From positions 1-32,000 of the forward strand of contig JANODO010000050.1 in NCBI GenBank assembly GCA_031412735.1: a stretch of 32,000 bases of DNA. The letters are read 5' to 3'. The notes under the pieces were generated by a model that worked only from the letters and a program-made list of their open reading frames with translations, searched no databases and was not told the DNA's origin. Shown piece by piece: positions 2,799-26,032 of the stretch. Within the stretch, counting starts at the first letter, position 1. Each line of letters begins with the position of its first letter. The DNA comes from Rariglobus sp. GTDB lineage: Bacteria; Verrucomicrobiota; Verrucomicrobiia; Opitutales; Opitutaceae. The translations under genes were made by a program, and so were the position numbers.

Positions 2799-3012
2799 AA
2801 TGGTTTGAAAGGTTTGGCGGTTAAAACTGAGGTTTCTCGGCAATCCGAGCTAGTAACGGTTGTAAGGTTGAGACTGAGCTTGGCTGGAAACGTTCCACTA
2901 GACAAACGGTCAACGCTGGCAGGTGGATGCATCATTTTGGGGGAAATGTATGAGCCATCGTTCCTCCTCTATAGCGGGTAGGCGGAGCAAAAGGGGCGCT
3001 GGTGACCCCCGA

Positions 3013-3633
3013 TTAGGCGAGAGTGTCGGGGACACTATTCCAGTTGGCGAAGAGCGGGAGGTCTCTCCCGCTAATCGGGAGCGGGGTCAGCGTAGAATCA
3101 GCAACAGCGGACTGGATCAGGGATTGCAGGCGCAGGTGGCGTTTCGCGAGGGCGATCTGGACGGCGGGAAGCCAGGAACGTGGGTAAAGCGCGACCAACG
3201 GTTCGTAACCCTGCGGACCCTGCGGGACGACGCCGGTGCGACCGTTGCCAGCGTCGATGAGGGTTTGCAGGAAGCCGGAGGTGAGGTGGGGCAAATCGAC
3301 GGCGATGATGAGCACCCACGGGTGGCGGGCGGCGGCGAGGATGGCGGCGACTCCGGCCAGCGGGCCGGAGTCGGGCACGGAGTCGATCACCACGCGCGCT
3401 TCGGGAATCGCCAGGGCGTAATGGACGTCGGGGCGGCCGGAGATGACTAGGTCGTGGATGCCGAGGCTGAGCAGGAGGGCGGCTTGGCGGGCGATGAGAG
3501 GCGGGCCGTCGGGCGCGGGGAATGGCAGGAAGGCTTTATCCCGACCCATGCGCGAGGAGCGCCCGCCGGCGAGGATGGCGCCGGTGAGGGGGAATTTATG
3601 GGGGAAGTCGGATGGGTTGCCCACGGAACACAC
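3013..3633 (-). CDS. mobA: molybdenum cofactor guanylyltransferase MobA
   Basis: GAILAGGRSSRMGRDKAFLPF, VIDSVPDSGPLAGVAAIL and LIIAVDLPHLTSGFL match MobA motifs. It is the last gene of the Moco operon. The GTG start at 3633 directly follows the tail of hairpin element A. The first six codons are a solo repeat arm, so the start is uncertain by a few codons. Confidence 0.82.
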   Translation of the reverse strand: MCSVGNPSDFPHKFPLTGAILAGGRSSRMGRDKAFLPFPAPDGPPLIARQAALLLSLGIHDLVISGRPDVHYALAIPEARVVIDSVPDSGPLAGVAAILAAARHPWVLIIAVDLPHLTSGFLQTLIDAGNGRTGVVPQGPQGYEPLVALYPRSWLPAVQIALAKRHLRLQSLIQSAVADSTLTPLPISGRDLPLFANWNSVPDTLA

Positions 3634-3640
3634 GGAGAGG
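3619..3640. repeat. solo arm fragment of a CACGGAA-flavour hairpin element, embedded in the mobA 5' end
   Basis: The minus strand reads CCGTGTGTTCCGTGGGCAA. This is identical to the last 19 nt of the distal arm plus tail start of the element at 4825-5036. No partner arm is present. Confidence 0.7.
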
Positions 3641-3650
3641 CTGAGTTATT

Positions 3651-3735
3651 GCCCACGAAACACACGAAATGACACGAAAGAATCAGAGCAAAGGAGCAGG
3701 GTTTCTTTTCGTGTCATTTCGTGTGTTTCGTGGGC
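3651..3735. repeat. compound hairpin element A (CACGAAA flavour)
   Basis: GCCCACGAAACACACGAAATGACACGAAA (3651-3679) is perfectly complementary (29/29) to 3707-3735, with a 27-nt loop. Each arm is three tandem (A/G)CACGAAA-like units. It sits between the MOSC stop and the mobA start. Confidence 0.95.
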
Positions 3736-4217
3736 TAAACGGTTTGGGGGTTTTCGAGGCGGAGTAGGCCGTCGGTGAGAATTTTGGCTCGGAGGCCGCC
3801 GCGACCTTTGAGGGCGTCTTCGGCTCCGGGGGCGAAGGCCTCGTTCATCCAGTGGCACGGAGAGCACTCGGCGGTGCCGAGGAAGCGGATGTTTTGGAGG
3901 GTGAATTCGACGCCGATCAGCGTGTTCAAATCGACCCCGCGCGTGATGACGTTGCGCCGAAAGGCGGACGGTGCGGGGTGCGCGCCGCTGAGCGGCAAAA
4001 ACGTGGCGCAGAGTTCATCGTAGATCTCACCAGAAAAAAACGTGATCTGCCCCTTGTAGTCGGCTTTGTAATCAAAAAAGCGGTCGCCGCGGATGCCGCG
4101 TCCGGCAACGCATTCGACTTCGGGCACCGGGACGACCGGGTGTTCGCCGGCGGGCTGGTTGTGGTGGCCGAAGTAATTATGGCCGGGAGAAACGTAGAGG
4201 TGTTCGATGCGGATCAT
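3735..4217 (-). CDS. MOSC domain-containing protein
   Basis: MIRIEHLYVSPGHNYFGHH, VECVAGRGIRGDRFF, RRNVITRGVDLNTLIGVEFTLQNIRFLGTAECSPCHWM and LRAKILTDG match the MOSC barrel with its conserved Cys. ATG 4217 is chosen; the 16 extra codons of the track ORF are translated hairpin arm. Confidence 0.8.
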   Translation of the reverse strand: MIRIEHLYVSPGHNYFGHHNQPAGEHPVVPVPEVECVAGRGIRGDRFFDYKADYKGQITFFSGEIYDELCATFLPLSGAHPAPSAFRRNVITRGVDLNTLIGVEFTLQNIRFLGTAECSPCHWMNEAFAPGAEDALKGRGGLRAKILTDGLLRLENPQTV

Positions 4218-4240
4218 CGGAAATAGGAGGCGGAGTTGTT

Positions 4241-4324
4241 GCCCACTAAAGACACGAAAGGACACGAAAGAATGGGAGCGAAAACCACGGTTTCGTTTCG
4301 TGTCATTTCGTGTGTTTCGTGGGC
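4241..4324. repeat. compound hairpin element B (CACGAAA flavour)
   Basis: The left arm GCCCACTAAAGACACGAAAGGACACGAAAG pairs 26/30 with 4295-4324. The right arm is identical to that of element A over about 27 nt. It sits between the mog stop and the MOSC start. Confidence 0.9.
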
Positions 4325-4809
4325 TAACCGCCTTGGAGGTGTTTGAGGCATTCGCGGATCGCGGGGATGAGCGGCGCTAAACACTCGCCGATGGCGCGGG
4401 GGTTGCCGGGGAGGTTGATGATGAGCGTGCGGCCGCGCGTGCCGGCGGTGGCGCGGGACAGGATCGCGGTGGGGACTTTGGCGAAACTCACGGCGCGCAT
4501 GGCTTCGCCGAAGCCGGGAAGTTCGCGTTCGAGCACGTCGCGCGTGGCTTCAGGCGTGACGTCGCGGGGCGCGGGACCGGTGCCGCCGGTGGTGACGATG
4601 AGATCGCAGTGTTCGTCGTCGCAGAGGGAGCGAAGGGTGGACGTGATGGTGGCGCGGTCGTCGGGGATGAGGCGGGTGACGAAGGTGGGCGCGGGTGTGA
4701 AGGCGGTGAGCAGGATGCGCTCGATCTCAGGGCCGGAGAGGTCGGCGTAAACGCCGGCGGAGGCGCGGTCGCTGAGGGTGACGCGGGCGATGAGGAGGGG
4801 AGCGGTCAT
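4324..4809 (-). CDS. mog: molybdopterin adenylyltransferase MogA (MoaB/Mog family)
   Basis: LIVTTGGTGPAPRDVTPEAT and LPGFGEAMRAVSFAKVPTAILSRATAGTRGRTLIINLPGNPRAI match the Mog signature blocks. ATG 4809 is chosen because the track ORF extension is hairpin arm. Confidence 0.85.
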   Translation of the reverse strand: MTAPLLIARVTLSDRASAGVYADLSGPEIERILLTAFTPAPTFVTRLIPDDRATITSTLRSLCDDEHCDLIVTTGGTGPAPRDVTPEATRDVLERELPGFGEAMRAVSFAKVPTAILSRATAGTRGRTLIINLPGNPRAIGECLAPLIPAIRECLKHLQGG

Positions 4810-4824
4810 GGAGACGGAGTTATT

Positions 4825-5036
4825 GCCCACGGAACACACGGAATACACGGAAGAAGTCGGAAACGGAGAAAACGGAGGTCGGGGTTTTAAACACGAATCA
4901 CTAAATACACGAAAATGAAAGCCTCCGATCTAGGTCCGACTTTCGTGTATTTCGTGTGTTTCGTGGTTAACCGGATTGGGAAATCGGTCTCTGTTTTTTG
5001 ATCGATTCTTCCGTGTGATCCGTGTGTTCCGTGGGC
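4825..5036. repeat. compound hairpin element C-outer (CACGGAA flavour) carrying a second element in its loop
   Basis: GCCCACGGAACACACGGAATACACGGAAGA (4825-4854) pairs 28/30 with 5007-5036. It sits between the moaC stop and the mog start. Confidence 0.9.
4887..4970. repeat. compound hairpin element C-inner (CACGAAA flavour, degenerate left arm), nested in the loop of C-outer
   Basis: The right arm TTTCGTGTATTTCGTGTGTTTCGTGGTTAA (4941-4970) is well preserved. The left arm TTAAACACGAATCACTAAATACACGAAAA has substitutions and a 1-nt deletion. Confidence 0.75.
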
Positions 5037-5497
5037 TAAACGGATTGGGGATTGGTTTTGGTTTTGGTGGTCACGCGGACTTCGCTGATGATCATTTTTT
5101 TGTCTACGGCCTTCATCATGTCGTAGAGCGTGAGCGCGGCGACGGCGACGGCGGTGAGGGCTTCCATTTCGACCCCCGTTTTGCCGGTAAGCCGGGCTTC
5201 GGCGGTGATGAGGATGCGGTCGCGTTTCACGGTGAAATCCACGGAAACTTTATCGAGGGCGAGCGGGTGGCAGAGGGGGATGAGGTCAGCGGTTTTTTTG
5301 GCGGCCATGATGCCGGCGAGGCGGGCGCAGGCGAGGACGTCACCTTTGGGGAGCGCCTGTTTTTTGAGGAGACGGAGGGTCGCGGGTGCGCAGCGGAGTT
5401 CGCCGGTGGCGACGGCGCGGCGGAGTTGCGGGGGCTTGGCGCCGACATCGACCATCGTGGCGGTGCCGGCGGCGTCGAGGTGGGAGAAGGTTTTCAT
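5036..5497 (-). CDS. moaC: cyclic pyranopterin monophosphate synthase MoaC
   Basis: [51 protein letters not shown] and [30 protein letters not shown] match MoaC. ATG 5497 overlaps the stop of the decayed toxin gene (ATGA). The track start at 5533 is GTG. Confidence 0.9.
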
Positions 5498-5798
5498 GAT
5501 GAGCGGCGTTTTCGGAGTTGGCGCTTGATCCACGCGGGGTCGCGGCGGCCATCAAGCACGCGTCAGATTTGAATTTCGATGGCGGTGACCCGGTAGTAGA
5601 TCACGTAAGGGAACCGTTTGGAGAGCGCCCGGTAAAAACCGGCGGATTTTCGATGATAACCGGCGTAGAGTCGCAAGGATTCAATATCGGAGAACAACTG
5701 TCCAAAAAATACGCGCCGACATTGGGAGAGCTGCGTTCGTAAAAACTGAAGCCGTCGAGCAGATCGGCTTCGGCCAGGCTGAGAAGCCGTAGATTCAC
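5494..5798 (-). pseudogene. RelE/ParE-family toxin, disrupted by one frameshift and one in-frame TGA
   Basis: From GTG 5798 the gene reads VNLRLLSLAEADLLDGFSFYERSSPNVGAYFLDS. The reading frame then slips near 5694-5698. The +2 frame continues FSDIESLRLYAGYHRKSAGFYRALSKRFPYVIYYRVTAIEIQI, then TGA (5563-5565), then [16 protein letters not shown]. The GTG overlaps the antitoxin stop (GTGA). Confidence 0.65.
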
Positions 5799-6028
5799 GC
5801 CTTTTTTTGGCTTCGGCGTTGAAGGCGGATTTTGGCGTCTGACCAATCCGAGAATGTGGCTTTGCCCGTGCGGACTGCGGCCTCGGTTTCTTGGAGGACA
5901 GCGGCGTGCCACGAAGGCGGTGAGTAAGCTGCTTCGTCGCGGGTTAGATCAACCCAGAGCAGTTCCATGGTCCGCAGTTTCTCGCGCCGTGACAGGTGTT
6001 CGATGGAAAGCGTCGTTGTCATCGGCAT
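5795..6028 (-). CDS. putative addiction-module antitoxin (CHP02574-like)
   Basis: 77 aa: MPMTTTLSIEHLSRREKLRTMELLWVDLTRDEAAYSPPSWHAAVLQETEAAVRTGKATFSDWSDAKIRLQRR. The L-S-x-x-E-(K/R)-L ... LW ... W ... G pattern is typical of this antitoxin family. ATG 6028 is chosen; the track start at 6091 is TTG. Confidence 0.65.
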   Translation of the reverse strand: MPMTTTLSIEHLSRREKLRTMELLWVDLTRDEAAYSPPSWHAAVLQETEAAVRTGKATFSDWSDAKIRLQRRSQKKA

Positions 6029-6068
6029 AGTTTTCTTGTCTGGGAGGGGAAGGCAACAGCCGGTTTTT

Positions 6069-7259
6069 TTAGCGGCAGGGGAGGACTTCAACTTCCGCAG
6101 TCAGCGGTGTGGTGGGGACGCGTAGGAGTCCTTCGGTTTTGGCGAGGAGCGTGAGGTCGGAGGAGTCGCGCCACGGGAGCGGCAGGACCCGGCGGGTGGC
6201 ACCCTCGTCTGACCAGAGGCAAGGCCACCAGGTTTCGCGCGGGTCGGGGCGCAACTCGGCTTCGGGGGCGAGCGTAGCGTGCACGAGCGCGGTGGGTTCG
6301 GTGCCGGCGAGGCGGGCGAGCACGCGTTTCACGAAGAGATGGAAACAGACGAAGTGAGAGAGCGGGTTGCCCGGCAGGCCGAAGGCGAGGCGTCCGTCGC
6401 GCGAGGCGGCGATGAAGGGCTTGCCGGGGCGGCTGGCGACCTTGTCGCAGTGAATTTTGAAGCCCTGGGCGGCGAGCAACGCGCCGGTATGGTCGTGGTC
6501 GCCGACGCTGGCTCCGCCGCTGATGAGGATAATGTCGGCGTCGGTGGAGAGCGCGGCGGCGAGTGCATCGGCGGTGGCGGCACGGGAGTCGGAGACGCGT
6601 TGTTGCCAAATCAGTTCGGCGTGGGCGTCGGCGAGAAGCGCGGCGATGAGCGTGGAGTTGGAATCGCGGATCTGGCCGAAGGCGGGTTGGGCTTCGGGGG
6701 GGACGAGTTCGCCGCCGGTGACGAGGTGGGCGACGCGGGCGCGGCGGGACACGAGCGGCGTGGTTGCGCCGAGGGAGGCGAGGAGGGCGAGTGCGCCAGC
6801 GTTGAGTGGCTGGCCGGTAGCGAGGAGTTGGGCACCGGCGCAGGCTTGAGAGCCGCGGCGGCGGATGTGTTTGGTCGAGGGCGGCTGGAGGAGTTCGAGT
6901 TGGTTTGCGGACGAGCCGACGAGGCGGGTGTCCTCCTGCATGATGAGGGCGGCGGCGGGGTCGGAGGGAAGTGCGCTGCCGGTGAGGATGCGGAGGGCGG
7001 TGCCGACGGGGGGGGCGGCGGCGGGCGCGGGAGAGCCGGGGGCGATGGTCCCGGCGAGGGTGACGGTGCCGGGGAGTTGGGTGGAGTGGACGAGGTAGCC
7101 GTCGATGGCGGAACGGTCGAAGGGCGGCTGGTCTTCGGGCGCGAGGATGGGCTCGCGTAGAATGAGGTTGTGCGTCGAGGCGAGCGGGACGCGCTCGGCA
7201 GGGAGGGGCGACGGAACGAGGGCGTCGAGGCGTATCCAGAGATCGGCGACGGAGATCAT
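6069..7259 (-). CDS. moeA: molybdopterin molybdotransferase MoeA
   Basis: PPFDRSAIDGY, ILISGGASVGDHDH, ASRPGKPF and GLPGNPLSHFVCFHLFV match MoeA. ATG 7259 (MISVADLW) is preferred over TTG 7280; it overlaps the GxxExxY stop as TGATG. Confidence 0.9.
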   Translation of the reverse strand: MISVADLWIRLDALVPSPLPAERVPLASTHNLILREPILAPEDQPPFDRSAIDGYLVHSTQLPGTVTLAGTIAPGSPAPAAAPPVGTALRILTGSALPSDPAAALIMQEDTRLVGSSANQLELLQPPSTKHIRRRGSQACAGAQLLATGQPLNAGALALLASLGATTPLVSRRARVAHLVTGGELVPPEAQPAFGQIRDSNSTLIAALLADAHAELIWQQRVSDSRAATADALAAALSTDADIILISGGASVGDHDHTGALLAAQGFKIHCDKVASRPGKPFIAASRDGRLAFGLPGNPLSHFVCFHLFVKRVLARLAGTEPTALVHATLAPEAELRPDPRETWWPCLWSDEGATRRVLPLPWRDSSDLTLLAKTEGLLRVPTTPLTAEVEVLPCR

Positions 7260-7759
7260 CAAGCGCGGAAAGAAATCCAAGCTACCGAGCTGGCGACTAG
7301 CAGGGTGACAAGCGAGAGCAGTCCTACGCCGGATGATCGTTCGTCTTGAAAAAGTGATCCGCAGGCCACGCGTTTTATTCCCTCTTTCATGACGGGCACG
7401 TTGAAGTTGAGCAGGAGCCCGAGAGACCTACGTTTCAGTTTAAGATAAGTAAGGAGCTGTGCTTGGTGGATCGGCTGGAACGAGTGGATCGATTTCAGTT
7501 CGATGATGAGTTCGTCCTCGACGATAAAATCCAGGCGATAGTCGCAATCGAGCGACACTCCCTTATAAGTAAGCGGGATGTCGCATTGGCGTTCATAACG
7601 CAGACCAGCGTGGGTTAATTCGTATGCGAGTGCCTCTTCATAGGCTGATTCGAGCAAGCCGGGGCCGAGTTCACGGTGCACCTCAATGCACAAGCCGATC
7701 ACACGATGGGAGAGTTGGTTGATGCGTTCTTTCTTAGCTTCGTTTTCTGGCGTCAGCAT
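7259..7759 (-). CDS. GxxExxY protein (PD-(D/E)XK nuclease-like fold) with a hydrophobic C-terminal extension of about 34 aa
   Basis: LSHRVIGLCIEVHRELGPGLLESAYEEALAYEL carries the GxxExxY signature, and YRLDFIVEDELIIELKSI carries a D...ExK core. GLLLNFN and IKRV mark the usual family C-terminus, after which the ORF runs on to 7259. It is visibly AT-richer than its neighbours. ATG 7759 is chosen because the track extension is hairpin arm. Confidence 0.85.
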   Translation of the reverse strand: MLTPENEAKKERINQLSHRVIGLCIEVHRELGPGLLESAYEEALAYELTHAGLRYERQCDIPLTYKGVSLDCDYRLDFIVEDELIIELKSIHSFQPIHQAQLLTYLKLKRRSLGLLLNFNVPVMKEGIKRVACGSLFQDERSSGVGLLSLVTLLVASSVAWISFRA

Positions 7760-7805
7760 AGAGGTGGAGATGTAGGGTGTGTTGGAGTGAAGGCGGGCGG
7801 AGTTT

Positions 7806-7906
7806 TTCACCACAAAGGCACGAAGACACAAAGGTCGGATAGAGAAATCAGCAGGTGAGATTGTGCACTTTATGAGAACTTTGTGTCACTGTGTCTTTGT
7901 GGTTAA
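7806..7906. repeat. compound hairpin element D (CACAAAG flavour)
   Basis: TTCACCACAAAGGCACGAAGACACAAAGGT (7806-7835) pairs 24/30 with 7877-7906 (AACTTTGTGTCACTGTGTCTTTGTGGTTAA). It sits between the moaE stop and the GxxExxY start. Confidence 0.85.
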
Positions 7907-7925
7907 AATCAGCGATGCATTGAGC

Positions 7926-8318
7926 TCATTGCAACGTGTCGGTTTTCCAGATGGGCACGTCTTGTTTGAGGCGGTCCATGAAGGCGGCGAGGAGGGCGAA
8001 GGCGGGGGCGCGGTGCTTGGCTTGGACGGCGATGTGAATGGCGGCCTCGCCCACAGGGATGATGCCGATGCGATGTTGGACGAAGACGGAGTGGCAGGGG
8101 TGCGCGGCGGCGAGTTCGGTGAGTAGGCGGTGCATCACGGTTTCGGCCATCGGTTGGTAGGCTTCGTAAACGAGGGCGGAGATGGGCTGGTCGTTTTCCG
8201 AGCCGCGCACCAGTCCGGTGAACGTCGCGAGGGCACCGATGTCGGGGTTGGCACGCGAAGCGGGCGGGACGATGACGGCGGAGGAAATGAGGATCTCAAT
8301 GTGCACGGCGGATTTCAA
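7926..8318 (-). CDS. moaE: molybdopterin synthase catalytic subunit MoaE
   Basis: ATFTGLVRG, YEAYQPMAE, HRIGIIPVGEAAIHIAVQAKHRAPAF and MDRLKQDVPIWK match MoaE. The start is TTG 8318 or GTG 8306. Confidence 0.88.
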   Translation of the reverse strand: MKSAVHIEILISSAVIVPPASRANPDIGALATFTGLVRGSENDQPISALVYEAYQPMAETVMHRLLTELAAAHPCHSVFVQHRIGIIPVGEAAIHIAVQAKHRAPAFALLAAFMDRLKQDVPIWKTDTLQ

Positions 8319-8358
8319 CCAGGTGGCTCGCGAAGGATACGAAGGGAGCGAAGGTAAA

Positions 8359-8598
8359 TCAGCCTCCCGAGACGGGAGGGATGACGGCGATTTCGTCGTT
8401 GGGTGAAAGGGTGGCGTCGGCGGTGAGGAAGTCGTTGTCGCGGGCGAGGCGGGAAGATGCGCGCAACGAGGCCAGGTCTGGGTGGCGTTGGATAAGTTGG
8501 TCCCAGAAGGCGGCAGTCGAGAGCGGTGTGGAAACCGGGATTTCCTCGGTCGATAGGCCGGTGATGCGGCGGGCGTGGGCGAAGTAGAGAACGGTCAT
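8359..8598 (-). CDS. moaD: molybdopterin synthase sulfur carrier subunit MoaD
   Basis: 79-aa ThiS/MoaD-size protein ending in PPVSGG (C-terminal Gly-Gly), immediately upstream of moaE. Confidence 0.85.
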   Translation of the reverse strand: MTVLYFAHARRITGLSTEEIPVSTPLSTAAFWDQLIQRHPDLASLRASSRLARDNDFLTADATLSPNDEIAVIPPVSGG

Positions 8599-8801: not shown

Positions 8802-11800
8802 TCACGGAGACCTCTCCACTTGATTGGCCAGCAGGGTGGCGACTACCGGATTACCGGTCGGTGCCGCCAACTCCACGGCGTAGCCTTTGCCTCCTTCGTA
8901 AATACTTACGACTGCGCCAATGGTGCCGACTGCAAAATCGTGCCCCTCTTCGACGACGGGCACTAGTAAACGCACGCAATCGTGCTCGGCAATGGCGGGC
9001 GCGATGGAGAGTTGGTAGTGGGAATCCAGCTCGGTGTGCAGGGATAGGATCGCGGCGATGCGCCGGACGTGGTGGGTGAACTGCTGCGCCTCGTCACTCG
9101 TAAGGGCGCGACCCAGCAAATCGACCTCGCGGTAGCTGAGCCACTTCTTGAGCACCTGATAGCCGCCGAGGGTGTAACTCCAGACCGCCACGGGAACGTC
9201 TTTCCACCGGGTGGTGGCGTTGAGGTGGATGTCGATAAAGCCGTCGCCGCGCGTGCCGGTGCTTGTCTGGCCGGGGCCGGGCATGGTGACGCCGTTTTGA
9301 CCGGCGTAGCCCCAACGTGCTTTGAGCGAGAGGTCGGGGGTCTTCTCACCCGGTTTGAGGGCGAGTTCACCGAGGCCTTTGAGGTCGACGCGGACTTTGA
9401 GGCTGGTGACGCCTTCGACGGGCGTTTCAGGATCGAGTAGTGCGGCGATTTTGCGGCCAAGGCCGGCTCCTGAGCGGAGAACTTGGGCGGTCTTCGGCAG
9501 GGGCACGCGGGGCCAATCCTGTCTGAGAGCCCCGGCATTTTCTTCCCGATAAAGCGGTGCGTGTAGCACGGCGACGATGTGGAAGAACAGGTCTTCTGGT
9601 CCGGCCTCCAATTCCGCCAGATAGTCCTTCGCGAAATCCGTCAGGTTGGGCTGCGGGCCGCTAGGCCCCGATGATTCGAAGAGATCGGACTGCGGTTCTT
9701 TGGAAGCTGCGTCGTCAGCCGCCGCGTGTAGATAGAGCGGGAAGAAATTGGAAAGCCCGTTGGCGAAGTTATCAGCGAGCAGAGTTGTCACGGTGCCACG
9801 ATCCCAGCCGTCTCGGCTTTCTGACTTCCTTGCCTCAATCCAGAAGTTTCCAGAAAAGACGTGTTTCACATACTCGGGACGTTTCTCGTCGAGGAGTTTT
9901 GTGTGTGGATTCCAATATAGCCAACGGGCATCGAAGGGGCGATAAAGGTAGCGGAAGAAGCGACCACTTTCGATGCCGTGATTTTGCAAATCTCCCCTAA
10001 CCTTCTTCGCATCAAAGCGGCCTGAGTCGTCCTTCAGTCCTGCTAGCCTGCCATCAAGCGATGAGAACGATACCTTTGGGTTGAAGTAGCGTTGCATACG
10101 TTCTTCCAACGCGCCGCGAGCAACGTCTATCAGCGAATCATCGCGACTAGTTTTCACTCCAGGAAAAGACGTGCCTAACAATTCGGGGAGCAGTTGCCAA
10201 TTTTCGTAGTCTTCACGAACGCCTATTGGGATGAACGGCAGCCCGAATTTGAGCGCGGGTTTTAGAGCCTGAGACTGCTTTGGGATTTCCAAAGAGACTT
10301 CCAACTCTGCTCGCTTCAATTTTCCCCACCAATGCCGAAAGTTAAGATCCGCGTGAGGATTGTAGGCAGTCGCATCGGTATCCGCCGCACGCGGCTTGCC
10401 CTTCGGTCTGCGCTCCATGAGCGCGATAGCCGTTCCCACCTGAATGCCTTCGCGATTTTTCTCGGTCGAGAAGACGCTTGGGTCGGGCTGACCATCGGGT
10501 GTCTTTTTGCCGGTCTTGTATTTATCGCCGTTGAGGCAGTCGATGGTGATGGAGTCGAAGACCTCCATGAAGCGCTCGCGCATGCCGGTGTGGGACAGGC
10601 CGTCGAGCCAGGAGTAATTGCTAATGTAGCAGATGATGCCCTTGGCATCGGGACGAGGCCGGCCGGGTTTGTCGTCATCGGACTTCGGCACGCCTTCGGC
10701 GATGCGGCGCTCGGCCATCCGGAAAAAGCGGACGTAAAGATCGTTGAGTCCCTGACCCTGCGGAGCGGCAACCGTCTTCACGTGGCGGTAGGATTCGGAG
10801 AGATTGCGTTCCTCTTCTACGGCCAGGCCGGCGTAGCCGTCGTAGGGAGGGTTGCCGAGGACGACGATGATCTCGGACTTCTGCTTCACGTGGTCGGCGG
10901 CGTCGCGTTCGTCTGAAAACTCGGAGAATAGGACTTGGTCTTTCGGGTGTTTGACGGGCACCCAGCCGGTGAGGGCGTTGGTTAGGAATACCCCGGCGCG
11001 CTCGTCCTTACCGTGGTCGAGCTCGGCGCCCCAGCGGGTGAGCATGAGGTCGATCTGGAGATGGGAGACGACGTAGGGCGCGGGCAGGAGCTCAAAGCCG
11101 TAGAGGCGATGTTTGGCGACTTCGCGGATTTTCAGCGCAGCTTGGGCTTCGCCGTAGCCCTCGACGAGGCGGCGGCGGATGAGTTTGAGCGTCTCGACGA
11201 GGTAGGCACCGGTGCCGCAGCAAGGATCGAGGACGACGACGGAGGGATCGGCGAGGCCATCGGGTAGGTTGAAGTTTTCGCGCAGGGCGCGGTCCACGCT
11301 GCCGACCATGTAGCGGACGATCTCGGGCGGGGTATACCAGACGCCGAAATCCTTGCGCAGCTCGGGGTCGAACTCGGCGAGGAAGGGCTCGTAGAAGTAT
11401 TGCACGGCCTCGCCCATGTCGTAGCGAGCGAAGAAACTGTTGCGCTCCACGCGGGCCAGGCACTCCTCGGTCCAGTCGAGCACCTCTTCAAGGTTGAGCG
11501 CACGGATTTTTTTAGGATCGCTGGCGAGCTGGATGAAGAGCGTGCGCAGGATAGGAAGGCCGAGATGCTGGGCGGAGAGTCGCCACTGGAAACGCTCGCC
11601 GGGTTTGGGGTGGGCTTCGTGCCAGAGCACCCAAGCGGAGAAGATGCCGTAGAAGAGCGTCTGGATGAGCGTGGACTGGAAGAAATGGACGCCCTTCTCG
11701 CCCTCGAAGTGAACGCCAAGAGCGTCGGACAGGGCCTTTTTCACCGGTTCAAGCGTGCCCATCGGGGCCACCTCCACGCGGGCGCGAGCTTCACGGGCAT

Positions 11801-12386
11801 AGCTGGCGAGGTAAGTGGCGAGGTCTTGAGGTGTGGCGATACGTGCGGTGGAGAGCAGGGCGCGGCGGAGGAATTGCCACAGGCGCTCATTCTCGGGGTG
11901 CTGGGGATTCTGGCGGAGGGTGTGAACCTTATCCCAGAATTCGTTTTCGCTGGCGGCGACGATGTAGCGTTCGCCTTGGACCGCCTTGCCGTCTTTCCAT
12001 GACCAGAGCGAGAAGGCGCGGTAGTTGGTAAGGAGGATCTGGCCGTAGTGCTCCAGGTAATTGCGGACCTGCGGGGTCGATTCGAAGGAGGAGAGATCCT
12101 TCTCGATGGGTTTGATTTCGACGACGCCGCGCTCGGGTTTGAGTTGGCCGAAAAGGGAGGCGCGGTCGTCGCCGTATTTCTTGAGTTCTTTGGCGGAGAA
12201 GAGGCCGCCGTCGGGAATACCGGCTCCGCTGTTCGCCGGATGGATTACGGCTGTGATCTTGGGTTTGAGGGTTTCTCCGACCGCGTTGAGCAGTTTGGAG
12301 AGTGCGGGATAGCCGCTGGTCTCCGGCACGCCGATGCCTGAGATGCTATGAAGTTCTACAAGGTAGTCGGCGACGGGGGATGACAT
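8802..12386 (-). CDS. single-chain Type IIG-like N6-adenine DNA methyltransferase (MmeI/YeeA/Type ISP-C-terminal family), possible N-terminal PD-ExK nuclease, C-terminal DUF4926-like domain
   Basis: 1194 aa with an ATG start. YFYEPFLAEFDPELRKDFGVWYTPPEIVRYMV is the block typical of MmeI/PglX/ISP methylases. VVLDPCCGTGAYL is SAM motif I and VVLGNPPYDGYAG is catalytic NPPY motif IV. WSYTLGGYQVLKKWLSYRE matches the conserved C-terminal domain of Type ISP/YeeA enzymes. No helicase or Mrr domain is apparent. The last ~65 aa (VRLLVPVVEEGHDFAVGTIGAVVSIYEGGKGYAVELAAPTGNPVVATLLANQV) look like DUF4926. Confidence 0.85.
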   Translation of the reverse strand: MSSPVADYLVELHSISGIGVPETSGYPALSKLLNAVGETLKPKITAVIHPANSGAGIPDGGLFSAKELKKYGDDRASLFGQLKPERGVVEIKPIEKDLSSFESTPQVRNYLEHYGQILLTNYRAFSLWSWKDGKAVQGERYIVAASENEFWDKVHTLRQNPQHPENERLWQFLRRALLSTARIATPQDLATYLASYAREARARVEVAPMGTLEPVKKALSDALGVHFEGEKGVHFFQSTLIQTLFYGIFSAWVLWHEAHPKPGERFQWRLSAQHLGLPILRTLFIQLASDPKKIRALNLEEVLDWTEECLARVERNSFFARYDMGEAVQYFYEPFLAEFDPELRKDFGVWYTPPEIVRYMVGSVDRALRENFNLPDGLADPSVVVLDPCCGTGAYLVETLKLIRRRLVEGYGEAQAALKIREVAKHRLYGFELLPAPYVVSHLQIDLMLTRWGAELDHGKDERAGVFLTNALTGWVPVKHPKDQVLFSEFSDERDAADHVKQKSEIIVVLGNPPYDGYAGLAVEEERNLSESYRHVKTVAAPQGQGLNDLYVRFFRMAERRIAEGVPKSDDDKPGRPRPDAKGIICYISNYSWLDGLSHTGMRERFMEVFDSITIDCLNGDKYKTGKKTPDGQPDPSVFSTEKNREGIQVGTAIALMERRPKGKPRAADTDATAYNPHADLNFRHWWGKLKRAELEVSLEIPKQSQALKPALKFGLPFIPIGVREDYENWQLLPELLGTSFPGVKTSRDDSLIDVARGALEERMQRYFNPKVSFSSLDGRLAGLKDDSGRFDAKKVRGDLQNHGIESGRFFRYLYRPFDARWLYWNPHTKLLDEKRPEYVKHVFSGNFWIEARKSESRDGWDRGTVTTLLADNFANGLSNFFPLYLHAAADDAASKEPQSDLFESSGPSGPQPNLTDFAKDYLAELEAGPEDLFFHIVAVLHAPLYREENAGALRQDWPRVPLPKTAQVLRSGAGLGRKIAALLDPETPVEGVTSLKVRVDLKGLGELALKPGEKTPDLSLKARWGYAGQNGVTMPGPGQTSTGTRGDGFIDIHLNATTRWKDVPVAVWSYTLGGYQVLKKWLSYREVDLLGRALTSDEAQQFTHHVRRIAAILSLHTELDSHYQLSIAPAIAEHDCVRLLVPVVEEGHDFAVGTIGAVVSIYEGGKGYAVELAAPTGNPVVATLLANQVERSP

Positions 12387-12824: not shown

Positions 12825-12945
12825 TTAACCATAAAGACACGGAGGCACAAAGGACTCACAAAGACCGGAAAACTGACGATTACAGCAGAGGGCAATCGAG
12901 GCTGAACTTTGTGAGGCCTTTGTGCCTTGGTGTCTTTGTGGTGAA
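12825..12945. repeat. compound hairpin element E (CACAAAG flavour, 39-nt arms), inverted relative to D
   Basis: TTAACCATAAAGACACGGAGGCACAAAGGACTCACAAAG (12825-12863) pairs 34/39 with 12907-12945. The asymmetric ends are TTAACC on the left and GGTGAA on the right, swapped relative to element D. Confidence 0.88.
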
Positions 12946-25794: not shown

Positions 25795-25915
25795 AAAAGT
25801 CAGGGTGGGGATCGCGGAGCGCACCTGCAAGCAGGCGGCCTACGGATTGGGAGACATACGCACGGCGCAGGCTTTGTAATACCAGTTATAGCATGAAATG
25901 AGACTTTCGTCTGGT

Positions 25916-25973
25916 GTAGGCCCGACCGGTGGTCGGGCGTCTCCTAGAAACCCCGACCACCGGTCGGGGCTAC
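25916..25973. repeat. REPIN-like inverted doublet of a GTAG-headed REP (CCCGACCGGTGGTCGGG core)
   Basis: GTAGGCCCGACCGGTGGTCGGG (25916-25937) faces CCCCGACCACCGGTCGGGGCTAC (25951-25973). Each unit is itself a hairpin, CCCGACC-GGT-GGTCGGG. Confidence 0.85.
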
Positions 25974-26032
25974 ATCGGGGCATGCTAAAGTCCGGCGCGA
26001 GTGCGGGTTGAGTGCGGGAACGCCTGCGTCGT

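Follow-up and report, generated by a model that had tools for sequence, protein, structure and literature searches.

The minus strand of a 32,000-nucleotide (nt) stretch of DNA from Rariglobus sp. (contig JANODO010000050.1, positions 1 to 32,000; hereafter the window) carries a molybdenum-cofactor (Moco) operon with moaA as its first and mobA as its last gene, in which the moaC/mog, mog/MOSC and MOSC/mobA junctions are each occupied by a long hairpin. [quoted passage not shown] To judge from the same comparison, the five extra residues of MoaC and the new tail of MOSC arrived with the elements, the start codon of mobA is element-derived, and the start codon of mog was probably donated by an element along with the four extra N-terminal residues of Mog. 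We attribute these novelties to the elements because relatives that lack them have overlapping or abutting junctions and no NPQxV sequence.

Structure of the elements

Each arm of these hairpins is built from three 8-9-nt units in tandem, with the pattern (N)CACGAAA or one of its variants CACGGAA, CACAAAG, CACAGAG and CGCAAAG. Arms are 26-31 nt long and 79-100% complementary, loops span 24-150 nt, and whole elements span 85-245 nt. Six copies or relics lie within the window (Table 1), where the arm motif has 10 matches against 0.5 expected. On the 5' side of the stem stands a non-palindromic head, which in the Rariglobus-clade lineage reads (AAY) CCN CAA NCC GKT TAR and has its stop codon touching the stem; its core is CAAnCCG(G/T)TTA(A/G), mostly with AAYCCN before it. 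On the 3' side stands the tail, the G-poor AAYAACTCCGYCTCC. The head motif CCCAAWCCGKTTAR and the tail motif AAYAACTCMGYCTC each have three exact matches in the window, every one of them at an element, and a search for the two motifs with up to two mismatches gives about one match in shuffled sequences. The element offers stop codons by frame, the head closing one frame, the arm supplying TGA, and the tail (GGGCAATAA) supplying TAA in another frame. Predicted folding energies are -57.6 kcal/mol for A, -52.2 for B, -97.9 for the whole of C and -35.9 for D. Comparison with shuffled sequences gives z-scores between -4 and -10, and in the case of A, B and C no shuffle folds as well. The elements are shorter than about 500 bp, have no coding capacity of their own and end in terminal inverted repeats, and all five operon copies A, B, C-outer, C-inner and D are sense-oriented.

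The hairpin coordinates and element sequences of the original prediction can all be read in the window. It had also described a TAG that serves as the stop of MOSC, mog and moaC while overlapping the first stem base, and at all three stops the G of the TAG is indeed that base. Likewise the tails lead, as had been proposed, into GTG 3633, ATG 4809 and, after 8 additional nt, ATG 4217, each window start thereby lying 15-23 nt beyond the stem; element D was rightly said to have the same kind of tail, which reads GTGGTG-AAAAACTCCGCC.

What the elements changed

We compared the orthologous junctions of six related operons and found them filled in some relatives and empty in others. In Rariglobus hedericola (L120; loci are cited by such numbers), which has no elements there, moaC and mog share an ATGA, TAA-cg-ATG links mog to MOSC, and the overlap between MOSC and mobA amounts to 8 nt. 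L215, too, is free of elements at its three junctions after moaC, which overlap and are equally compact. Both of these element-free operons encode a MoaC that ends in KEKK. The ancestral MoaC has 148 residues, to which the element-bearing genomes add QTV or (S/T)(N/D)P(Q/K)x(V/G); in the window the protein ends in TNPQSV. MOSC proteins from orthologues without elements end in SPASSISTHA, VSPFPP or, as in L215, RVDVP, and those from element-bearing genomes end in (EN/A)PQ(T/A)V, the window version in ENPQTV. Both the window and L204 have the head at the end of MOSC. At the end of MoaC it is identical or nearly so in six genomes (the window, L122, L124, L204, L206 and L208), where it stands before arms of the CACGAAA, CACGGAA and CACAAAG types. 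Among the matches listed in a metagenome scan with MoaC nearly all were distant, and L124 was the one used. A head also precedes C-inner, within the non-coding loop of its host element. Thus the claim that MOSC and MoaC owe their NPQ(T/S)V termini to the elements stands, since the element-free orthologues end otherwise and the same head recurs at C-inner. Certain MoaC database entries end in DPQTVLPTKHTK or PQTVLPTKHTK, i.e. they run through the head and then through the translated arm up to the TGA of the arm; in these read-through variants TTAG is replaced by TTTG.

On the downstream side, the Mog N-terminus of element-bearing genomes reads MTAPL(L/R)IARV in place of MKIARV, and the mog ATG with the next four codons is exclusive to these genomes. 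Their MobA starts inside a repeat arm. In the window the only in-frame mobA starts after the TAA at 3646-3648 are GTG 3631-3633 and GTG 3622-3624, both inside a solo arm, and the first six codons (3617-3636) correspond over 19-20 nt to the 3' arm of C-outer, in agreement with the original description of these codons as a solo distal arm.

The elements differ in what they contribute. The QGG residues at the end of Mog had been read as element sequence, a candidate ruled out by L215, where mog ends CTG CAA GGC GGG TGA without any element. QGG being native, the apparent head of element B is mostly mog coding sequence and B merely lies at or just after the native stop. The MOSC ATG is likewise native, and element D donates no stop, the moaE TGA lying 20 nt upstream of it. 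Hence the proposal of a portable stop-hairpin-start cassette holds for MoaC, MOSC, mobA and probably the mog start, but not for Mog QGG, the native MOSC ATG, D or E. Similarly, the suggested comparison of termini with orthologues reveals lineage-specific additions at the ends of MoaC and MOSC, but not at the Mog C-terminus, whose QGG is found in the element-free L215.

Insertion, nesting and loss

Several junctions preserve what look like successive states of element turnover. The nested state is that of element C in the window, with C-inner lying inside C-outer. A half-deleted state is found at moaC/mog of L122, which reads head, GAAA-type hairpin, tail, solo GGAA-type 3' arm, tail and ATG; the window MOSC/mobA junction has the same layout. 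In L204 some 9 codons separate the element from the native MOSC stop that follows it, and the former 3' end, which overlapped mobA in an ATGA, can still be aligned as downstream spacer. The MOSC/mobA junction of L206 bears a scar in which the head is joined directly to the tail (GTTTGGCCC followed by AATAAATCCGAGTCC), the hairpin core being gone and a solo arm remaining in the same register as in the window. This scar is translated as a 17-residue tail of MOSC that stops at the TAA of GTGGTTAA, and the GTG of the same sequence is the called mobA start, overlapping the MOSC stop. We propose that elements nest in one another's loops and that recombination between directly repeated heads or tails removes the outer arm. 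Solo 3' arms would be left behind, and one arm type would be exchanged for another with head and tail retained. The half-deleted and scar-like products would follow from the heads and tails of a nested pair being direct repeats, and so would the finding that one junction can hold different arm types in different relatives.

Related arms are found at other junctions of the operon. At moaE/moeA of L204 (3705-3828) and L206 (3141-3248) there is a further arm type, made of CGCAAAG/CGCAAAA units, with the same tail before the ATG, (T)AAACCTCCG-ATG and TTAAAACTCCGTCTCCG-ATG respectively. Yet another arm type, with CATCCGTG units, stands at moaD/moaE of L206. The degenerate solo arm at moaD/moaE of the window has a better-preserved orthologous relic of the CGCGAAG type in R. 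hedericola (L120, 3392-3444), a genome without elements otherwise.

The operon and its other features

Judged by the homologues of MoaC, the window belongs to the Rariglobus clade of Opitutaceae. Table 1 lists the genes of the operon together with the elements. The large gene between moaA and moaD, which is not present in related operons, encodes a 1194-residue product with N6_Mtase, MmeI_Mtase and Type_ISP_C domains. Between moeA and moaC is inserted a segment (5565-6025) comprising an antitoxin gene (Unstab_antitox, 5795-6025) and an adjoining ParE-like toxin region, and likewise in L206; a stop codon within the translation of the toxin region suggests that it may be a pseudogene. Two palindromes unrelated to the elements also lie in the window. 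One is a 27-nt inverted repeat at 1555-1628 (AGGGAGGGACGAGCTCTGTCTCGTCCG, 96% complementary), about 100 nt from a tRNA gene (1378-1451), and the other, at 25915-25974 (TGTAGGCCCGACCGGTGGTCGGG and its complement), has 23-nt arms that are 96% complementary and a 14-nt loop.

Table 1. Elements, element parts and operon genes in the window
Feature	Positions	Strand	Remarks
mobA	3013-3633	-	
Solo 3' arm at mobA	3617-3636	-	CACGGAA-type, older element, TCCGTGTGTTCCGTGGGCAA
Element A tail	3634-3650	-	AATAACTCAGCCTCTCC, then GTG 3633
Element A hairpin	3651-3735	-	Arms 3651-3679 and 3707-3735, 29 nt, 100% complementary, CACGAAA units, 27-nt loop
Element A head	3735-3752	-	AAC CCC CAA ACC GTT TAG, last 5 MOSC codons and stop (TAG 3735-3737)
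MOSC-domain gene	3735-4217	-	
Element B tail	4218-4240	-	AACAACTCCGCCTCC and 8 nt (TATTTCCG), up to native MOSC ATG 4215-4217
Element B hairpin	4241-4324	-	Arms 4241-4269 and 4296-4324, 90% complementary
mog TAG stop	4324-4326	-	Overlaps first stem base of element B; preceding CAA GGC GGT is native mog
mog	4324-4809	-	
C-outer tail	4810-4824	-	AATAACTCCGTCTCC, mog ATG 4807-4809 directly after
C-outer hairpin	4825-5036	-	CACGGAA-type arms 5006-5036 and 4825-4855, 94% complementary; encloses C-inner
C-inner	4873-4980	-	In C-outer loop; hairpin about 4889-4968; CACGAAA-type arms, 3' arm degenerate
C-inner ends	Head 4967-4980	-	Head CCCAATCCGGTTAA; tail-like AAAACCCCGACCTCCG; non-coding
C-outer head	5036-5053	-	AAT CCC CAA TCC GTT TAG, last 5 MoaC codons and stop (TAG 5036-5038)
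moaC	5036-5497	-	
moeA	6069-7280	-	Start at 7280
PDDEXK_3/GxxExxY gene	7259-7759	-	Between moaE and moeA
Element D	7792-7908	-	CACAAAG-type hairpin 7804-7908; tail AAAAACTCCGCCCGCC 7792-7807; spacer between moaE and PDDEXK_3 gene
moaE	7926 to about 8306	-	GTG start 8304-8306
moaD/moaE spacer relic	8307-8358	-	Degenerate solo 3' arm (CTTCGCG units) and tail-like TTGAAATCCGCC, directly before moaE GTG
moaD	8359-8598	-	
Type ISP restriction-modification-like gene	8802-12386	-	Between moaA and moaD
Element E	12825-12945	Opposite orientation	CACAAAG-type hairpin, spacer between moaA and Type ISP restriction-modification-like gene
moaA	13068-14039	-	

A wider family and its PDDEXK_3 cargo

We sampled arm-bearing blocks from genomes (at least 119, L001-L119) and from viral contigs (L217-L296). 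The 17-nt arm sequence CCACGRAACACACGRAA is found in at least 119 genome blocks from Verrucomicrobiota, Acidobacteriota, Planctomycetota, Desulfobacterota, Kiritimatiellia, Hydrogenedentota, Cloacimonadota and others, with one match in an archaeal metagenome-assembled genome, and in at least 90 viral-contig stretches; no block from the source genome of the window is among the at least 119 arm matches listed. Over 37 elements 93% of arm positions are paired, versus 74.5% with shuffled partners, and 30 extra types of Watson-Crick pair occur over 24 pairs, with many compensatory changes between arm types; these pairs were counted on ungapped arms because MAFFT set the arm types out of pairing register. 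Stem-to-start distances in the family are 7-24 nt and stop-to-stem distances 0-25 nt, a spread for which the notion of a fixed stop-stem-start geometry was dropped.

The tail is shared by elements with different arms. Five arm types have it on their 3' side, it leads in various genomes into the start of mog, MOSC, moeA or moaE, and it also occurs in an unrelated setting, between the PDDEXK_3 and VKOR genes of a PqqD-PDDEXK_3-VKOR arrangement (L211), as well as in L118 and L075. The GTG at the 3' foot of the stem (CGTGG-TTAA or CGTGG-GC) recurs as the first start available to the downstream gene, or as the one called for it, in L112 (truA), L110, L206 (5567/6628) and L211 (2682).

The sole gene that recurs next to or inside the hairpins codes for a PDDEXK_3 protein, no dedicated scan of the window open reading frames (ORFs) for Y1 transposases having been made. 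A PDDEXK_3 gene of about 125 codons lies between the arms in 7 of the at least 119 genome blocks listed. All eight cargo-bearing elements examined lie between co-directional ORFs of at least 100 codons, the upstream one ending 1-18 nt short of the 5' foot and the next beginning -4 to +34 nt past the 3' foot. Of 44 hairpins overall, at least 10 occupy tandem junctions as tight as these. In the long loops of hairpins in L107 and L127 no cargo could be recognised. The window gene at 7259-7759 matches Pfam PF13366 with 144.6 bits against a cut-off of 22 and TIGR04256 with 148 bits against a cut-off of 35; its last 30 or so codons (7259-7355) form a degenerate 3' arm, which extends over the moeA start at 7280. 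The PDDEXK_3 proteins of Opitutaceae (P0132-P0240; loci L210, L211 and L216) usually have 166 residues, their ORF being translated through both arms, with an MNH(E/K)DTEAQR N-terminus and an LLCASVSLWF C-terminus, and forms of 139 residues end before the 3' arm. A structural model of the protein adopts a nuclease fold (pLDDT 91), for which Foldseek finds lambda exonuclease, Cas4 and Bax1 as weak neighbours (TM about 0.4-0.47); a sequence search of the PDB gave no match, and the function of the protein is listed as unknown (PMC3424549).

In L001, L048, L103 and L110 a hairpin lies at one orthologous site between divergent SpoU-type and RumA-like methyltransferase genes; each gene has its start no more than about 15 nt from a stem foot, and one of the two apparently uses the GTG of the foot.

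A model of insertion into coupled junctions

As the ancestral junctions overlapped or abutted, an inserted element must close the upstream frame and reopen the downstream one. The head does the former, and the downstream frame is reopened by the tail, by a GTG at the stem foot or by a new ATG. Full-length relatives in several phyla carry a PDDEXK_3 gene between two arms and likewise lie co-oriented inside operons. The family is probably selfish and mobile, possibly by way of the PDDEXK_3 nuclease-fold protein. In such operons only those copies would survive that close the upstream frame fast and leave an unstructured leader. A bolder and rather doubtful extension is that the hairpin-flanked PDDEXK_3 cassette and its empty derivatives form an undescribed, operon-riding class of selfish element, spread across phyla and equipped with its own junction kit, permitting re-initiation across the base of the stem. 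Such a cassette would insert at cistron boundaries in the sense orientation, where host transcription would express its cargo. Its kit would comprise a stop-bearing head, a stem that sets stop and start next to each other and a tail bearing the leader or start, and would keep the element harmless in operons that lack Shine-Dalgarno sequences and are coupled by overlap.

Among the called starts of L120, L204, L206, L208, L210 and L211 a Shine-Dalgarno-like motif is found at 5 of 62, and many genes overlap in ATGA. The native leaders of these Opitutaceae loci are G-poor and C/T-rich like the tail, which by its composition is a typical leader of this lineage. For these reasons the missing Shine-Dalgarno sequence at the starts downstream of the elements, to which the original prediction had drawn attention, is real but unremarkable, being not element-specific. 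A stop codon at the foot of a stem of -50 to -100 kcal/mol would be expected to uncouple the cistrons and may slow termination; the stem might also aid re-initiation by joining stop and start, be cut by RNase III or be bound by a protein.

Alternative explanations

A number of observations weigh against a mobile MITE-like family as the explanation. The head is found in 0 of the at least 119 arm-bearing blocks from other genomes and is known only from Moco operons of the clade, besides a loose resemblance in Opitutaceae bacterium TAV5 (L210). With the head so far confined to these operons, spread within an operon cannot be told from genome-wide mobility, and either a spread restricted to the operon or the capture of a mog 3' end would therefore be possible. 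The native mog 3' end does resemble the head (CCTCAACGGTT versus CCTCAAACCGGTT), and the head could be captured flanking sequence or a target preference. A search of viral contigs for the pattern of head plus arm gave no exact match, and a protein search with the translated element gave none either. No clear target-site duplication was found at the copies examined. Copies of the GCCCAC type have no flanking direct repeats, and the TTAA at both feet of TTAA-type copies also extends the palindrome. Transposition itself was never seen, and mobility is something that we infer. Arm identity is 93-100% across genomes in which the flanking genes share 60-91% identity, and the loops cannot be aligned, a pattern more in keeping with selection on the sequence of the arms than with recent copying. 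Phage-like contigs commonly carry solo arms, with 91 occurrences without a partner versus 26 with one. In L239, L225, L234 and L253 (IMG/VR, GC content 0.65-0.69) up to five solo 3' arms with tails, in one orientation and without partner, lie 670-1600 nt apart shortly upstream of consecutive gene starts (e.g. GGGCACCTTCTAAAAAAA-ATG), which suggests that the arm may be functional by itself. Finally, element E, which lies inside a 680-nt spacer with no stop or start codon adjoining, and the hairpins between divergent genes (L001, L048, L103 and L110) are, by their positions, misfits to a purely intercistronic picture.

The hairpins might also be RNA regulators kept by the host, acting as a 3'-exonuclease barrier, an RNase III site, a translation-ratio device or a coupling adaptor whose stem places the stop next to the following start and so lets a terminating ribosome re-initiate, a somewhat unlikely explanation that is compatible with a mobile origin. 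The sense orientation of all operon copies, the conservation of arms against drifting loops, the contact of the stop with the stem and a start 7-24 nt beyond it all suit such a role, as does a lineage that lacks Shine-Dalgarno sequences and normally couples its genes by overlap. Repetitive extragenic palindromes (REPs), too, are reported mostly between unidirectional ORFs and to be transcribed (PMC3733652). Yet close relatives manage without the elements, which makes them dispensable, the distances on both sides of the stem vary, the stem mismatches in B and D are not preferentially G-U on the sense strand, and hairpins are also found between divergent genes.

It is improbable, in our estimation, that head and tail are not borne by the hairpin at all, but are either a pre-existing target or junction sequence gene-converted within one operon, into which the core inserts and from which it is lost. 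The joint of head and tail without a core in L206 is readable as an empty site, and this explanation would also account for the restriction of the head to Moco operons and for the head-like native end of Mog. It needs, however, a head of about 15 nt and a tail of 15 nt to have been in place beforehand at three junctions and inside the loop that hosts C-inner, whereas element-free relatives have ATGA overlaps and no such sequence. Moreover, the tail occurs in the unrelated L211 operon, in L118 and in L075, and the downstream solo arm of L206 is in register with that of the window, as deletion of a palindrome would leave it.

We give similarly little credence to the possibility that the arms are primarily protein-binding arrays, their three direct 9-bp repeats lying on one face of the helix for a binder that would be PDDEXK_3 or a regulator, with the palindrome secondary and the solo arm as the functional unit. 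In many phyla the arm is conserved in sequence as well as in pairing, and the excess of solo over paired arms in phage-like contigs is to be expected of a binding site, as are the series of same-orientation arms and tails in L239, L225 and L234 (up to five arms), which are followed by start codons at -4 to +45 nt. The context in which solo arms occur most often is a gene start that leaves the foot (54 of 150), but this enrichment is modest and comes from crude ORF calls. Compensatory changes that keep the arms complementary across arm types argue for the palindrome, and the viral stretches examined contain no PDDEXK_3 gene. Intrinsic terminators or attenuators, which the stable, G+C-containing stems after stop codons might bring to mind, are so improbable that they can be set aside: no U-tract follows any stem on either strand, a terminator scan of 2800-8500 flags no element stem, and the elements stand between genes of one pathway at junctions that ancestrally overlapped.

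Relation to known repeats

REPs with GTAG/CGTC tags are extragenic, lie mostly between unidirectional or convergent genes and often supply the TAG of a flanking ORF from their termini (PMC3733652); the verrucomicrobium Opitutus terrae is reported to be rich in them (PMC3733652). A REP has a stem of 20-40 bp in all, the GTAG/CGTC tag and a link to the RAYT tyrosine transposase. The elements described here differ in their arms of three tandem units, each arm alone as long as 26-31 nt, and in having long loops, a conserved 3' tail and, in some copies, loop-borne PDDEXK_3; their tag is TTAG/TTAA with about 12 conserved bases before it. Since the sequence adjacent to the stem is TTAG, TTAA or TTGC and never GTAG/CGTC, they fall outside the REP definition.

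Coxiella MITEs (QMITE1/2) overlap the 3' ends of genes by 1-50 bp and extend EnhC (PMC5896051), and in-frame fusions between MITEs and ORFs have been reviewed (PMC2229807). Like bacterial MITEs such as QMITE1/2, Correia/NEMIS, ERIC and Rickettsia RPE, the elements are short, non-autonomous inverted repeats with long stems and nested or partial copies. Known MITEs are related to transposases of insertion sequences and usually have target-site duplications, neither of which was identified here, and the replacement of overlapping junctions by a polar head and tail, with donation of start codons, has not been reported for them.

Three other systems bear comparison. In integrons the attC site is an imperfect palindrome at cassette boundaries, whose outer core sites often contain the upstream stop and lie near the next start. 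The genes flanked by our elements belong instead to a syntenic housekeeping operon, and they are not mobile cassettes because the order moaC-mog-MOSC-mobA is kept in element-free relatives; also, the RYYYAAC/GTTRRRY cores are absent, the ends being GTTTAGCCCAC...GTGGGCAATAAC. The intervening sequences of 23S rRNA likewise have a terminal-inverted-repeat stem that encloses a small ORF in a host transcript, but the host is an rRNA and not an mRNA operon, and the cargo is a four-helix-bundle protein and not PDDEXK_3. E. coli REPs reportedly form a stable stem that, at up to about 15 nt from a stop codon, stalls terminating ribosomes and lowers upstream expression via trans-translation; in the window the stop overlaps the stem itself.

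A search of the whole window against Rfam (E <= 1) returned only the tRNA and a chance snoRNA match and matched no element, and in the literature on the arm sequence, GxxExxY and PDDEXK_3 we found no description of a hairpin cassette. With TAG donation by REPs, the gene overlaps of Coxiella MITEs and MITE-ORF fusions on record, the principle that repeats donate stop codons is already known. The present elements depart from these precedents in their three-unit arm, in the polarity of head and tail, in systematically replacing junctions that overlapped and donating starts as well, in their probable turnover by nesting and deletion, and in the link to loop-borne PDDEXK_3 across phyla. The finding extends, and does not overturn, what is known of REPs and MITEs.

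Implications

The elements have consequences for annotation, in that called ORFs run on into the arms, and translated arms make up the MNHKDTEAQR beginning and the LLCASVSLWF end of many GxxExxY proteins in the databases. They also point to a widespread palindromic PDDEXK_3 cassette that was not found in Rfam or the searchable literature, and they offer a testable system for initiation and coupling in Verrucomicrobiota lacking Shine-Dalgarno sequences. The operon also affords a single-nucleotide view of how a repeat can enter tightly overlapping, translationally coupled genes without destroying the operon. The ends of the proteins were rewritten in the process, with MoaC longer by 5 residues, MOSC given a new tail (17 residues from the scar in one relative), Mog extended by 4 residues at its N-terminus, and the start codon of MobA now lying inside a repeat arm.

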